From: Methanotrichaceae archaeon
GTDB taxonomy: Archaea > Halobacteriota > Methanosarcinia > Methanotrichales > Methanotrichaceae
Length of the DNA: 64,000 nt
Direction of reading: 5' to 3'
Assembly (NCBI GenBank): GCA_963813075.1
Contig: CAWEXU010000031.1
Coordinates: forward strand, 202,582-266,581
In this document: piece after piece, positions 34,918 through 43,485 of the stretch
Position numbering within the stretch: position 1 is the stretch's first letter
Layout: each line of letters begins with the position of its first letter
Translations under genes and position numbers: made by a program
Notes under the pieces: generated by a model
Database searches by the model: none
The model's input: only the letters and a program-made list of their open reading frames with translations
What the model was told of the DNA's origin: nothing

Positions 34918-36502
34918 CCTAAACTCCGCCCTTTTTAATAACCATATTCGCCTCAACAGGCACGCTAATTTCCATCTTTTCCAAAATCGTCCTCTGTTTT
35001 TTAGAGACCTCTGTAAGCCTCCACTTTCCGCCGACTTTAACTGCTCGCAACTTTGACAATTCCATCAGAATCTCCTCGATAGAACTCTTATCGAGCAGCT
35101 TAGCCTCCCTTGCCCTCCGGAGCAAAATTGCTCTCAGTATCAGCGATATGAAGAAGATGAACAGCAAGCCTTGTAGCGTTTCGACCTTCTGTACTCTCAG
35201 AGGCATAACTTCAAGTTCATTCTTCAGATCATCGAACTTCTTCTCGACTTCGTCTCTCTCCCGATAGAGAGAAAGGACCTCATCCCAGCTTCGTTTTGAT
35301 GAAGAAAGTAGAATTGTCTTTCCAAATCGATTTACAGCCTGCGATATGGCGTTCACTCGTCTGCTAAGATGAATCGTCTTGCCTTCCAGAGTGTACTCAA
35401 AATATCTTTCAAAATTTCCTGCTGTCCTCTTGAATTGGTCGATTGGATTTCGGAACTCTTTTCCGTCAATGGTGCATTCGATATCGATTAATCGATTGTA
35501 GAACGAATTTGTTTCTAATCCTTCTCGCTTCTTGTTAAACAGGACATATCCATAGGCATCGACGTCCCCAATTTGAATCTCACTTTCCAGGACATAGAAG
35601 ATATCACCGCCAAATCTTTTAGCATTAGCCGGGCTCTCAATTTCTCTATTCGTCTCACTGATCAAGCCCTTGCCGACATTGACGCTAAACGGAAGAGGAA
35701 TGATAAAATCGATGTTCGCGTCGTTCATTTCTTTTATATTATTCTCACTGTAGAATCCGCGATCCAAGATGAATAGACTCTTCGATATGCCAAGCGCTTT
35801 GACCTCAGCCACAAGGTTTTTCAGAGTCACAACATCGCTGATGCTGCCTGGAAACAGTTTGAAATATAAAGGTAGATGCCTATGCAATGAAAGAACCAGG
35901 CCGAGGTTCACTTGAGGCAGGTCAAGACCATCGCGATTATATCCCCACTCCAGCCAATCGATATTTCTGGAAGCAGATGAGAGCGATGTGATATCGAATA
36001 TCAGCGTCTCATCCTCGCCGGCGATCAAAGAATTATAGAACGAATTCATGGACTTTTCTTTTGTGGCCAATCGTTCCAGGAAATTTGAAAGCCATTGGGA
36101 GCTGAATGATTCTTTGAGCGAGTACATCTCTGGCAGGAAAGAATCATCAAGAACGTTGTTTAAATTCTTAAGAGAGGTTTGATGAAGCAGCTTGCTCATT
36201 GCCATAGCTAAAATTATATCGCCATCTTCGGCAAATGATTCTGAAAGCTTCTTTCTGAGCTGGATCTCACTGCTTACGGAATCCAGAAGATATGCCGGGC
36301 CTAATGATTTCGTTGTCTTGACATCTCGTTCTGCTGTTTTCGGGATGATCTGGCCTGTTGCCTCATCCCAAACGCCAAGGTATCGCCGTTTCTGCCGGGA
36401 TTGTTTCTTTTCAGGATCCCAATAATTTTCGGCTTCGTAAGCATATGTCCGCCCGCGGATCTTCTGCTTAACCAGATATGTCATAGCTAAGAGTAATAAC
36501 CA
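34918..36502 (-). mobile_element. IS1634-family element; DDE transposase CDS 34919..36484
   Basis: YAYEAENYWDPEKKQSRQK, FDITS, GYNRDG..LPQVNLGL, DRGFYS, YRERDEVEKKF. Confidence 0.9.
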
Positions 36503-36632
36503 TTGCGCCTTTGTGGTGAGGCCTAAGAATCCCGATTTCACCAGAGAGACAAAATGGAGAAATAGTGGCCCCAGTTATGCCCATAGAACACAGCCTAGAA
36601 CCGTTTGCCTGGATTTCTCCACCCAGCATACT

Positions 36633-38294: not shown

Positions 38295-38351
38295 GTCGAA
38301 GTAGGTGCCAGGTGCAAAAGCATTTGTACAATCCTGACATAATAATACTCT

Positions 38352-39200
38352 ATGGCCGAGGTAGTGGAGCTGATTGAGGAGACAGCAGGAAAGAAGGAAG
38401 ATGGGGCAGAGGAGGAGGATTCAACCCCTTCTGCACCTCCCAGGACCATATGGTCAGGCAGCCTGAGAATAGGTCTGGTCAACATTCCGGTCAAAGCCTT
38501 CTCCATGATCAGGAACACCCGCATCAGCTTTCGCATGCTTCACAAAGCTTGCAAGACCCCCATCTCCTTCAAGCGCTACTGCCAGGAGGGAGAGGAGGTA
38601 GCCCTCGCGGACATAGTCTACGGTTATCCTCTGGGAAAGGATAAGTATGTAGTTCTGGAGAAAAAGGAGATCGATAAGGCGAAGCCCGAATCCAGGAACA
38701 CCATAGCCCTCGACCGCTTCATCAGCTTCTTTGAGGTCGATCCACATTACTTTGAGAAGACATATCTGCTGCTGCCCGACCGCTCCGAGGAGGCCTACTC
38801 CCTTTTAAGAGCAGTGATGGAGAAAACGGGCAAAGCGGCCATCGGCAGGATCACCATGCACTCCCGGGAGAGGCCGGTCATAGTCCACTACTACCGGCAG
38901 GCAATCGCTGCCACCACCATGAGGTACCCTGATGAGATCACAGATCCGGCGGGATATAGCGTACTGAAAGAGCTTCCCGAGCCGTCGGAAAAGGAGATGG
39001 AGCTTGCTATTGAGATCGTTCGCGGCCTGACTGGCGAGCTGGATTATGGCGCTTATGAGGATGAGTACAAGAAGAGAATCGAGGCCCTGGTCAGGTCCAA
39101 GGTGGAGGGCGTGGTGATTGTACCGGAGAAGAAGAGGGAGAAGCCCCCGGCCAGGAGTCTGATGGAGGCCCTGCGGGCGACGGCCGATTCGCTGAAATGA
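38352..39200 (+). CDS. ku: Ku protein (NHEJ end-binding)
   Basis: IWSGSLRIGLVNIPVK, YFEKTYLL, AYSLL..ME...KAAIG, MRYPDEI, LMEALRA. Confidence 0.95.
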   Translation: MAEVVELIEETAGKKEDGAEEEDSTPSAPPRTIWSGSLRIGLVNIPVKAFSMIRNTRISFRMLHKACKTPISFKRYCQEGEEVALADIVYGYPLGKDKYVVLEKKEIDKAKPESRNTIALDRFISFFEVDPHYFEKTYLLLPDRSEEAYSLLRAVMEKTGKAAIGRITMHSRERPVIVHYYRQAIAATTMRYPDEITDPAGYSVLKELPEPSEKEMELAIEIVRGLTGELDYGAYEDEYKKRIEALVRSKVEGVVIVPEKKREKPPARSLMEALRATADSLK

Positions 39201-40157
39201 ATCCGATCAAGCCGATGCTGGCTGTATCCGGCCAGCCCTTCAGCAGAGAGGGCTGGATCTTCGAGCCGAAGATCGACGGGACCCGCTGCATAGCCTCGGC
39301 CCAGAAAAGGGTCGTGCTCTCCAACCGCAGGCTAGCGGATATCAGCTATCGCTACCCTGAGCTGGTAAGTGCGCTGAGCAGCCTGAAGGAGGAGTGCGTC
39401 CTGGACGGCGAGATCACCGTCTTCAAGAAGGGCATTCCCAATTTTCGTTCTTTAGCGGAGCGAGACCATCAGAACGATAAGATCAAGATAGACTACCTCT
39501 CCCGTGCCATGCCGGCCAGCTATGTCATATTCGATATCCTCCATCTAAATGGGGAGAGCCTGATGCATCTTCCCCTCAAAGAGAGAAAGAGGATTTTGTT
39601 CGAGCAGTTGGAGGCGGATCTGGAGGATAGCGAGACCGTGACCCTCATCGACTCCTTTCCTGAGAAGGGGGAGGATTATTTTCAGGCCGCTCTCAAAATG
39701 GGGAATTGAGGGAGTGGTCGGCAAGAGGCTGGAGTCGCTCTATCTGCCCGGCATCAGGAGCCAGGACTGGGTGAAGATCAAAAAGAGCCTCAAGCTGGAT
39801 TTAGTTGTAGGCGGCTACATTCCGGGAAAAGGGGATCGATTGCCTTTCTTTGGCGGACTTCTCCTCGGCGCCTACAGCCAGGGCAAACTGGTGTACATCA
39901 GCAGGGTTGGATCCGGCTTTACCGAAGAGGAGCTGCAGGATATCACCAGCCGCTTTTCGCCCACTGAAGAGTCCCCGTTCTCCGATCCGCCGGCAACGCC
40001 AGGAGTAGTATGGATCGAGCCGAAGATGGTGGTCCAGGTCACCGCTCTGGAGACAACACATGATGGCGGCCTGCGGGCCCCGGTATTCCTGCGCCTGAGG
40101 GATGACAAGGAGCCGGAGGAGTGCACATTGGATCAGATGGGAGCGGAATTAAAATAA
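39197..40157 (+). CDS. ATP-dependent DNA ligase (LigD ligase domain only); extra G near 39701
   Basis: EPKIDG, LDGEI, FDIL, EGVVGK, Y.PG.RS.DWVKIK, VGSGF, LRAPVFLRLRDDK. Confidence 0.92.
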
Positions 40158-40180: not shown

Positions 40181-40592
40181 ACGCGCCTCTAAAGAGAAGC
40201 ATAAAATCGAGTTCCGGGCGGGTTCAGCACCGATCCACAGCGCCCTTTTAGAAGGAGCCAATCACATTGTGATGGCCTGTCCGCGCCCCGAGCCCGACTC
40301 AAAGCCGGGCAATATAGCAATTACCACACTGGACTTAACGCAGCGTCCCTTTTACGAGAACCCTAAAGCACCGCTTGATGCCGGGTTGATCAATTGCACT
40401 GCCACTGGCTTTGTGCCGCGCCCATTGAGCCAGGCGAGATTTCCAGATAAGCTGAATTAAGGCATACTACGCCAATTAAGGCGTGTATCTCTTTGACCCA
40501 CTGGTCATCAGCTTTTCTGGTGCTTTTCGGATGCTGCCCCAATAACAGCACCGATAAGCTTTTTTCTCGTTCTTGCGGCTTTAGACGCGGCA
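40181..40592 (-). ncRNA. Candidate ~410-nt structured non-coding RNA, family unknown
   Basis: 5'/3' ends complementary; at least eight nested stems with G-U pairs favouring the minus strand; upstream BRE/TATA-like ccgaaaactacaaata; no convincing ORF. Confidence 0.6.
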
Positions 40593-40711
40593 ATCTATCT
40601 ATATAATCGTTATAGTTATTTGTAGTTTTCGGTTGAAATCGAATAAATTAAGTGGCCAGACGCAAAGCATGGAGCCAGTAAATATACGGCGAAATTATGC
40701 GGTGAAATACT

Positions 40712-41473
40712 GTGAAGATAGTCTACAGCAGAGAAATGCAGGAGAGGTATCCTGCAAACCCGGTGGAGAATCCGGATAGAATCTCTCTCTCGGCCTCAGT
40801 TCTGCAGGAATTCGAATTCATTGAGCCCATTCCGGCAAGCCTTGAGGACATCGCCAGAGTGCATGGACCGGAGCATATCGAACGGGTGAAGAGCAATGGA
40901 CTGTACGATGCCGCCGCCCTTGCCGCGGGCAGTGCCATAGCGGCTGCCGAGCTGGCCCTTGCAGGAGAGCCAGCTTTTGCCCTCGCCCGCCCTCCAGGCC
41001 ACCACGCATCAGCCAACCGGGCCTGGGGAATGTGCTTTTTCAATAACATGGCCATAGCGGTGCAGAAAGTCCGGCCGAAAGCGAAGCGCGTCCTGATAAT
41101 CGACATCGATCTTCATTTTGGCGATGGCACAGTGAGCATCTTTCGGGGAGACAGCAATGTCCGGATCGTCAACCCCTGGTCGGTGGACGAGAACTTCGAG
41201 TACCTGAACATGGACCAGAGCCGCTATTTGGGGCAGATCAATGAGGCCTTCCAGGGTTTCGATTGCGATATCGTCGGGGTGTCGGCGGGCTTTGATACCT
41301 ATATCGAGGATTGGGGCGGCCTCTTGAAGATCGAGGACTACAGAATGATCGGCAGGGCCATCCGGGAAGGATCAGAGGAGAAATGCGACGGGAAGAGGTT
41401 CGCCCTGCTGGAGGGCGGATACCACCCGGGTCTTAAGTGGTGCATAAAGAGCTTCATCGAGGGATTCGGGTGA
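40712..41473 (+). CDS. Histone deacetylase/AcuC family protein
   Basis: RPPGHHA, GMCFFNN, DIDLHFGDG, SAGFD, LEGGY. Confidence 0.92.
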   Translation: MKIVYSREMQERYPANPVENPDRISLSASVLQEFEFIEPIPASLEDIARVHGPEHIERVKSNGLYDAAALAAGSAIAAAELALAGEPAFALARPPGHHASANRAWGMCFFNNMAIAVQKVRPKAKRVLIIDIDLHFGDGTVSIFRGDSNVRIVNPWSVDENFEYLNMDQSRYLGQINEAFQGFDCDIVGVSAGFDTYIEDWGGLLKIEDYRMIGRAIREGSEEKCDGKRFALLEGGYHPGLKWCIKSFIEGFG

Positions 41474-42743: not shown

Positions 42744-43485
42744 CTACCAGGGGGCTGAAATCGCCCGACCAATCTCCCCCATCACCTTCTGCGATCCGAA
42801 TACTTCATCGGTCCGGCCCACGGAGGTGAGCCTGCCCTCCTCTAGCACCGCCACCCTGTCTGCCAGCATCAGTGCCTCCTGCATATTGTGGGTTGCCAGG
42901 ACAACTGTGGTCTTCTGTCCAGCCAGGCCCTGCAGTAGGCGGTCGATAGCCTCGACGCTCTTTGGGTCCAGGTTTGCGGTGGGCTCGTCCAATAGCAGCA
43001 GCTCCGGCTCCAGGATCAGAGCCCTGGGCCAGGGCGATCCTCTGCATCTCCCCTCCTGAGAGGGTGTTGGCATCCCTCTTCTCATAGCCGGAGAGTCCGA
43101 CCGACGATAGTGCTTCCTGAACCATTCTCTTGTCCTTCTTCCCCCTCATCTTCAGGCCAAAGGAGACATTATGCTCCACATCCGCCCTGAACATCACCGG
43201 CTTTTGGAAGACCATAGCCATGCGGCGGCGCACAGGAAGCTTTTCACTATCCGGGAGACTTGAGACCTCACGGCCTTCGATTGAAATTCGACCGGAGGTT
43301 GGGCCTTCCAGGAGGTTGATCAGCCGAAGGAGAGTGGTCTTTCCCGAGCCCGTGGGGCCGATGAGGGCCAGGACCTCGCCCTTCATCACCCTCAGGTTGA
43401 TATCCTTCAGGATCTCTGCCTGGCCGTAGCTCTTGGCAAGATCCTCTATCTCCAGGAATGCGCCTTCTCGGGCAATCTCGCTCAA
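42744..43485 (-). CDS. tupC: Tungstate ABC transporter ATPase; frameshift near 43020
   Basis: GPTGSGKTT, LSGGEMQR, LLLDEPTANLDP. Confidence 0.85.

Follow-up and report, generated by a model that had tools for sequence, protein, structure and literature searches.

The window, a stretch of 64,000 nucleotides from the genome of a Methanotrichaceae archaeon, carries on its minus strand a member of a large archaeal non-coding RNA family that is uncatalogued and known, among the families searched, only from Methanotrichaceae. We have hardly any doubt that this is a real non-coding RNA gene. Behind a promoter-like block of its own, the gene combines a 5' domain that varies with a conserved 3' half built of two four-way junctions. 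Across the family, copies are associated with a DUF1699 gene, a gene encoding a protein of 57 amino acids (aa), a small RNA (sRNA), and the integrase of proviruses or integrative elements. A preliminary description of this DNA had proposed an independently promoted large RNA of an uncatalogued class on this strand, and our analysis supports this proposal. By analogy, our best reading is that the family may be an archaeal counterpart of the mobile-element RNAs of the GOLLD/ROOL type. We found no description of it in the literature, where the supplements of large non-coding RNA surveys could list it; two articles that we considered (PMC4405575 and PMC11259601) are, as far as their accessible text goes, unrelated to it.

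Anatomy and folding of the copy in the window

The gene is of type A and spans 40205..40591 (minus strand, ~387 nt), with boundaries taken from alignments of the copies. The extent first given was 40181-40592: the core, from 40591 to 40205, is the conserved unit, and the tail (40181-40203) lies outside of it. A BRE-like element (40626..40632, minus strand), kept before copies of types A, B, and C, and a TATA-like box (40617..40625, minus strand), 25 nt 5' of the conserved 5' end in the copy alignments, make up the block that had been noticed upstream on the minus strand; we find it at 40632-40617 and again before most copies, and it is the predicted promoter of the RNA gene. The most reduced member of the family (locus L172) also has a canonical-looking TATA box at its start. 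Between the TATA box and the start of the gene lies an imperfect 7-7-7 palindrome (40597..40616, minus strand), which is kept across copies and is a possible regulator site; three of its six near-perfect matches in the source genome sit at RNA copies.

The variable 5' domain (40414..40592, minus strand) is closed by a helix between 40582-92 and 40414-24 (pair probability 0.97) and includes a hairpin with a bulged A (40464..40488, minus strand), of which visual inspection shows a similar version in each of the types A, B, and C. The 3' half, which scores 159.6 bits with the covariance model of this part of the family, consists of two modules. Module I (40300..40413, minus strand) is a long stem leading to a four-way junction with a variable arm (40387-40359), a short A-rich arm (40358-40347), and a T-loop arm (40345-40327). 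Module II (40205..40299, minus strand) repeats this plan in another four-way junction, which the 3' end closes and whose arms lie at 40277-40256, 40256-40243, and 40242-40228. This is the shortest promoter-bearing type-A copy measured: its 5' domain lacks ~80 nt near 40560 that the alignment reveals in orthologues, and the third loop of its module I has 6 nt, as opposed to the 7-nt T-loop of the family. With this deletion and this loop, the copy is somewhat worn.

Folding of the minus strand reaches -179.3 kcal/mol (z -6.85), which none of 100 shuffles equalled, in line with the expectation that it would fold better than shuffled controls; the plus strand folds more weakly (z -3.74), and one-sided G-C/G-U changes across the family also favour the minus strand. 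Most of the local helices initially described are present in the ensemble with pair probabilities of 0.87-1.0, i.e., the hairpin at 40527-54, the stem 40443-55/40508-20 with its sub-hairpins (40494-507 and 40464-88), the multibranch closed by GCAATT/AATTGC, and the hairpins at 40257-76 and 40243-55, whereas the stem at 40401-35 and the hairpin at 40292-310 are missing from the minimum-energy fold. The two ends that were proposed to pair (40579-89 with 40182-94 and 40566-76 with 40199-211) are complementary in sequence, yet this pairing has a probability of 0.0; forcing it costs 9.3 kcal/mol, and it is not conserved. The 5' end pairs instead with 40414-24, in a helix preserved across type-A copies. 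The repeated decamer of the preliminary description does occur at two sites (40225 and 40546) but is not duplicated in orthologous copies, and it sits at the junction of the ~80-nt deletion, which is private to the copy in the window.

A conserved 3' half behind a changeable 5' domain

Most full copies start with the same ~45-nt block of BRE, TATA box, and palindrome and finish with a helix that closes on their last bases; the block went unrecognised in 26 of 132 contexts, some of which are truncated or at locus edges. Members of the family range from 200 to 510 nt. At least three forms of the 5' domain exist, giving total lengths of ~390-500, 410-510, and 280-325 nt, and one genus has a minimal form of ~200 nt that amounts to the two modules of the 3' half behind a TATA-like box (locus L172). 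When the 5' types, whose labels are heuristic, are mapped onto a tree built from 66 3' halves, eight changes are required against a minimum of two. This suggests that 5' domains have been swapped between copies.

The two look-alike four-way junctions of the 3' half follow one plan: a closing stem and three hairpins, namely a variable one, one of 3 bp whose loop is A-rich, and one with CGCUG. The covariation check on this half was positive, with two-sided change in 23 of the 60 pairs among 49 copies, which none of 500 shuffles attained. In the same alignment, from which the structure itself was drawn, 93.1% of the cells are paired, compared with 34-43% in slid controls. In an alignment fitted to the model, with 72 rows that include more divergent copies, 51 of the 60 pairs show two-sided change. 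Compensatory changes span 11 genera, and here as in the other counts related genomes are not independent. The type-A 5' domain is more weakly supported: in 15 copies 94.3% of cells appear paired and 9 of 42 pairs show two-sided change, a number attained in 14 of 500 shuffles, and further pair types do no better than shuffles in this domain (139/500). Folding z-scores are uneven, being below -4 in three of the 12 copies sampled (12 shuffles each), and a search for pseudoknots or loop-loop covariation by mutual information, which has low power, gave nothing above noise.

The loop on the third arm of module I has 7 nt in 46 of 69 rows, with an A at position 5 in 45 rows, a U at position 7 in 43, and a U at position 1 in 32 (U1 and A5 together in 31), and it is closed by a G-C pair. 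In those 46 rows the arm bears a T-loop signature, by the consensus of tRNA and riboswitches. The equivalent loop of module II usually has only 5 nt, and one type of copy carries the T-loop sequence of tRNA itself. Exposed loops are conserved across the family. The gene does not encode a protein: relative to the copy in the window, 21 type-A rows contain 7-20 frame-breaking indels apiece, and most indels have lengths that three does not divide. Conservation of a reading frame is absent, and the longest stop-free run (median 98.5 codons) resembles that of shuffles (90 codons).

Distribution and copy number

The homologue search suggested in the preliminary description found matches, at the level of DNA, in all 36 genomes of the same genus and in none of 24 genomes of other families. 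We then have a covariance model, built on the 3' half of 49 of the 58 non-redundant copies, which matches 83 of 105 Methanotrichaceae genomes (46 of the 64 of high quality, and 11 of 16 genera) with 1-12 copies each; the genomic count that had been called for gives five copies in the source genome. The model has no match in 76 genomes of other families of the class, in 150 genomes drawn from the phylum, or in 22 of the 105 family genomes, among which are all seven of one genus. Searches for distant homologues retrieved none in five family genomes at E<=1 and none in phage or plasmid collections. An exact pattern searched over all GTDB species occurs at 62 loci, 58 of which are labelled Methanothrix, Methanosaeta, Methanotrichaceae, or uncultured Methanosarcinales. 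Three bacterial matches are not copies, their agreement being confined to the short pattern; a fourth, in a bacterial bin, includes a real module II with the sRNA and is probably a mis-binned contig.

Copies are intergenic, mostly with a promoter-like block of their own, and the family also includes truncated and degenerate ones. They lie mostly away from tRNA genes (one of the five in the source genome is within 1 kb of one). An island that ends at tRNA-Phe/Val (locus L036, 1-17058) contains two RNA copies spaced by 3 kb together with restriction-like genes (identified by eye), a ParE-like toxin, and a TPR gene, and a similar arrangement is found in locus L040.

Presence in RNA libraries

Part of the RNA stretch is present in 18 RNA runs of ten studies. 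In the four runs whose contigs were aligned to it, contigs pile up between 40223 and 40577, with a summed depth of 21 to 1.0 million per bin, and in three of the four, contigs with 0-3 differences and depths of 100-1,700 cover the stretch. These values are contig depths, devoid of strand and ends, that sum paralogues and relatives in runs chosen because they contain the stretch, and flanking genes with little or no depth are not thereby shown to be silent. The transcript check thus returns near-identical sequence in RNA libraries; the sequence is present there, and the depths suggest high abundance. Methanothrix is the source of much of the acetate-derived methane in digesters, sediments, and paddies. 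A multi-copy RNA that is found on very deep metatranscriptome contigs and is absent from Rfam ends up being read as unassigned sequence.

Association with a cassette of proviruses and integrative elements

We analysed 132 non-redundant contexts, a set biased to high-scoring type-B copies and with flanks often under 2.5 kb. Within 2.5 kb, 27 have DUF1699, 25 the 57-aa gene, and five a tyrosine integrase, and 80 lack all seven marker proteins that were sought, with flanks that are often short. A PemK-like gene is near six contexts only. In five near-complete genomes, a hand count places nine of 30 model matches (three of them weak and partial) at <=~1 kb from one of 41 DUF1699 genes, for ~0.2 expected. 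The RNA and DUF1699 follow each other in tandem in one genus, and in a second genus they are divergent (an example of DUF1699 is L020 2059-2493, minus strand). DUF1699 is nevertheless found in 197 of 201 genomes of the class, with 1-21 genes per genome, and 26 loci from RNA-less genomes have no RNA beside DUF1699 even with filters off, which makes it at most a facultative partner. No solved structure is related to it below E 0.1, and its atlas hits are only from its own family.

The 57-aa gene is restricted to 42 of the 201 class genomes, all RNA-positive, with 69 matches, of which at least 28 are within 2 kb of a listed RNA copy or promoter (hand count). Its protein belongs to no known family, occurs only in Methanotrichaceae among the genomes searched (e.g., L002 1654-1827, plus strand), and has only atlas leads below 0.9; the gene is frequently oriented divergently to the RNA promoter or to DUF1699. 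The sRNA, a hairpin of ~65 nt behind its own TATA-like box, follows the RNA in 68 of the 132 contexts and represents a second uncatalogued family. It exposes CCCUCCU twice, in the loop and in the tail; these anti-Shine-Dalgarno-like tracts resemble the end of the 16S rRNA, which reads CACCUCCU. Six copies are present in the source genome (C4:70101, C16:7070, C30:15542, 89743, and 442860, and C31:229901), another is at L002 941-880 (minus strand), and the sRNA also occurs without the large RNA. Pairing of its loop with the large RNA is no better than in shuffles in most of the 45 cases shown of 57.

The integrase occurs in 12 of the 105 family genomes; six of 12 integrase loci carry the RNA, and four of 12 the whole cassette. 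Of the eight pattern matches in viral contigs, three are real copies of the RNA, most copies being chromosomal, and two of four viral pattern scans were empty. Two of the three contigs have terminase and portal genes and hold the RNA beside an integrase: on one, which also carries terminase, portal, and major capsid genes, parA and the integrase flank the RNA; on the other, the neighbourhood of the RNA includes the integrase, DUF1699, the 57-aa gene, and two sRNAs, and a terminase gene is 10 kb away. In the third, the RNA is at the contig end, which may be host flank. Two viral contigs (L346-L347 and L350-L351) correspond to one tailed virus, whose genes include those for terminase, portal, and major capsid as well as parA and a partner gene rich in repeats, and one of them carries an anti-restriction gene. 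The copy in the window has no cassette gene alongside.

Neighbours of the copy in the window

The RNA gene is flanked by genes outside its unit. The ku gene (38352..39200, plus strand; Pfam Ku, E 2e-39) is followed by an ATP-dependent DNA ligase (39197..40157, plus strand; Pfam PF01068 and PF04679) convergent with the RNA, and on the other side a gene of the histone deacetylase family (40712..41473, plus strand; Pfam PF00850), common to four orthologous copies, is divergent from it. Judging from the spacing in relatives, the reading frame of the ligase is shifted by one base near 39704 in this assembly, and RNA contigs of two runs lack one base at this point. Two further genes near the RNA look split (36595-37818/36633-37082 and 42744-43485). 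Together with the frame break, this suggests indel errors of the assembly. A 540-aa transposase-like gene is encoded at 34919-36541 (minus strand) of the window, and a similar gene is found beside other RNA copies.

Function and alternative explanations

The spread of the RNA by integrase-bearing elements is, in our opinion, probable. Such elements, when decaying, would leave RNA copies in the chromosome, and the copy in the window would be one such orphan. Each junction may dock its A-rich loop on the T-loop, producing a surface akin to the elbow of tRNA, and this surface could bind and sequester a protein, the best candidates being DUF1699 or a tRNA-binding factor of the host. The sRNA could mask ribosome-binding sites and, with the large RNA, might damp translation under stress. 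That the RNA acts as an abundant tRNA-like structural decoy or scaffold is a tentative reading of its predicted structure, to which we give somewhat less than even chances. Its extension to a four-part system spread by proviruses of acetoclastic methanogens, where a very abundant tRNA-mimicking RNA, DUF1699, the 57-aa protein, and an anti-Shine-Dalgarno sRNA would bring the host into translational dormancy, is speculative and rather unlikely to hold in full.

Several other explanations must be weighed against the decoy, and the two suggested in the preliminary description fare worst. It had proposed a partnership with the adjacent Ku or ligase, to which one can add that two more genomes have a copy close to ku (at 1.3 and 2.8 kb, among 18 wider ku regions with partly the same genes), that 51 of 54 ku-positive genomes have the RNA, a count confounded by kinship, and that DUF1699 paralogues often follow ku-lig. 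Yet the RNA is within 1.5 kb at one of 30 ku loci, the window's own, and 32 of the 83 RNA-positive genomes lack a ku match, including some 98-99% complete with 3-10 copies. It is beside the deacetylase gene at five of 30 such loci, in the window and its four closest relatives only, and these four orthologous copies have other downstream genes than ku-lig, so that the RNA would have been gained at the deacetylase site first and ku-lig would have become its neighbour later. The adjacency is thus most likely accidental, and a partnership very improbable. Since ku-positive and RNA-positive genomes overlap and DUF1699 paralogues adjoin ku-lig as well as the RNA, a shared programme that links them indirectly is conceivable; by eye, no promoter motif is common to the RNA and the genes for ku, DUF1699, tRNA, RNase P, or SRP. 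Immediately 5' of their start codons, the ku genes have a non-canonical promoter-like motif in common (window 38300-38352; L198-L226), and one DUF1699 paralogue is often convergent just 3' of ku-lig. The other suggestion, an omegaRNA (reRNA) scaffold or a non-autonomous IS200/IS605 derivative, agrees with the multiple copies and with one of the five in the source genome being head-to-head with tnpB, and we regard it as the least probable of all. The RNA is on the 5' side of that tnpB, not at its 3' end, and two 97% identical copies of the gene have no adjoining RNA; the 3' end of the RNA is base-paired and not a free guide; the HEARO model matches neither the locus nor eight other copies, with a Methanosarcinaceae locus as positive control; and the CTAAAG/CTTTAG ends are not conserved across copies. 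The longest matches between the flanks of 106 copies are at the level of shuffles (direct 5.53 vs 5.47, inverted 5.02 vs 5.05), which also gives no sign of a MITE-like transposon. In a Methanosarcinaceae-like genome, a HEARO RNA above the gathering score (L310 35-253, plus strand) has a DUF1699 gene at a distance of ~1.2 kb. Known classes were rejected as well: RNase P and SRP RNA have one gene copy each elsewhere in the source genome, group I and II introns have no model match and the copies are intergenic with their own promoter, and, with no consistent downstream gene, the RNA is not a riboswitch. Models of ribozymes, tRNA, T-box, and FMN and cobalamin riboswitches do not match the RNA, and Rfam, as anticipated, has no match at the gathering score over the window; at E<=10 the locus retrieves only two chance fragments, and eight other copies have no match at E<=1.

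The remaining alternatives keep the link with mobile elements or copy number and differ in what the RNA does. It could be a protein-independent multimer, a cage or filament like GOLLD/ROOL that kissing loops and A-minor bridges would hold together, with the neighbouring genes as fellow cargo. The conserved exposed loops and the plan shared with GOLLD, as far as the available text of the source describes it (conserved 3', variable 5', link to proviruses), favour this explanation, which we consider unlikely given that the RNA is shorter than GOLLD and has a ~200-nt form, that the low-powered mutual-information scan gave no clear loop-loop covariation, and that copies are mostly not at tRNA genes. 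Less likely still is an RNA antitoxin of an addiction module of the type III kind, whose repeated modules would neutralise the 57-aa protein or DUF1699: the mobile context and the presence of the RNA in every genome with the 57-aa gene, and often near it, would fit, but neither protein matches a toxin family, the 57-aa gene is divergent from the RNA instead of co-transcribed, about half of the RNA-positive genomes have no match to it, and throughout the class DUF1699 is found where the RNA is missing. The RNA could also be a passenger, selfish or neutral: a non-autonomous repeat, perhaps a ribozyme relic, that persists through duplication and a strong promoter and plays no role in the host. 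This would explain the variable number of copies, the truncated and degenerate ones, the fact that a single subclade gained the RNA at the deacetylase locus, and the family genomes without the RNA. Compensatory changes across genera, the persistence of orthologous copies across species, the lack of target-site or terminal repeats beyond shuffles, and the lack of a ribozyme or intron match render it improbable, slightly more so than the antitoxin.

Comparison with known systems

Type III toxin-antitoxin RNAs, such as ToxI, consist of repeated structured units beside small protein genes on mobile DNA. The Methanotrichaceae RNA resembles them in these respects and differs by having no toxin family match, no tandem short repeats, and no co-transcribed downstream partner. 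T-loop modules are found in tRNA and in FMN and cobalamin riboswitches, and the family shares with such systems the 7-nt loop closed by G-C, with U1, A5, and U7, and a two-fold repeated architecture; it lacks an anticodon arm and a CCA end. Stem I of the T-box, according to the accessible part of its description, contains a double T-loop (PMC10482949). For the companion sRNA, the comparison is with sRNA41 of Methanosarcina mazei, a small archaeal RNA proposed, in the text available, to mask ribosome-binding sites (PMC5867862). The ~65-nt hairpin with two CCCUCCU tracts is likened to what that text reports by its proposed role and not by sequence.

The closest parallel is with GOLLD and ROOL, presented in the available text on them as large, ornate, non-coding, prophage-borne RNAs of unknown function, with the conserved 3' and variable 5' regions of GOLLD forming separate domains (10.1101/2024.12.08.627333). 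As far as that text allows the comparison, the Methanotrichaceae RNA is also large and ornate, is found on viral contigs, and is conserved in 3' and variable in 5' like GOLLD. It is not a member of either: it is archaeal, occurs in one family only with several chromosomal copies, has no Rfam match, and the GOLLD, ROOL, and OLE covariance models fail to match the window at the gathering score, the locus at E<=10, or eight other copies at E<=1. Its 200-510 nt compare with >800 nt for many GOLLD, and it is built of twin four-way junctions. Its genomic links are with DUF1699, the 57-aa gene, and the sRNA, and not with tRNA islands. If the four-part system were true, an archaeal GOLLD/ROOL-like RNA would have candidate partners encoded alongside, and DUF1699 would gain a function. 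GOLLD and ROOL have structures and no function; the Methanotrichaceae RNA adds named candidate partners, three 5' variants, and a minimal two-module form, which together make the function of such an RNA directly testable.
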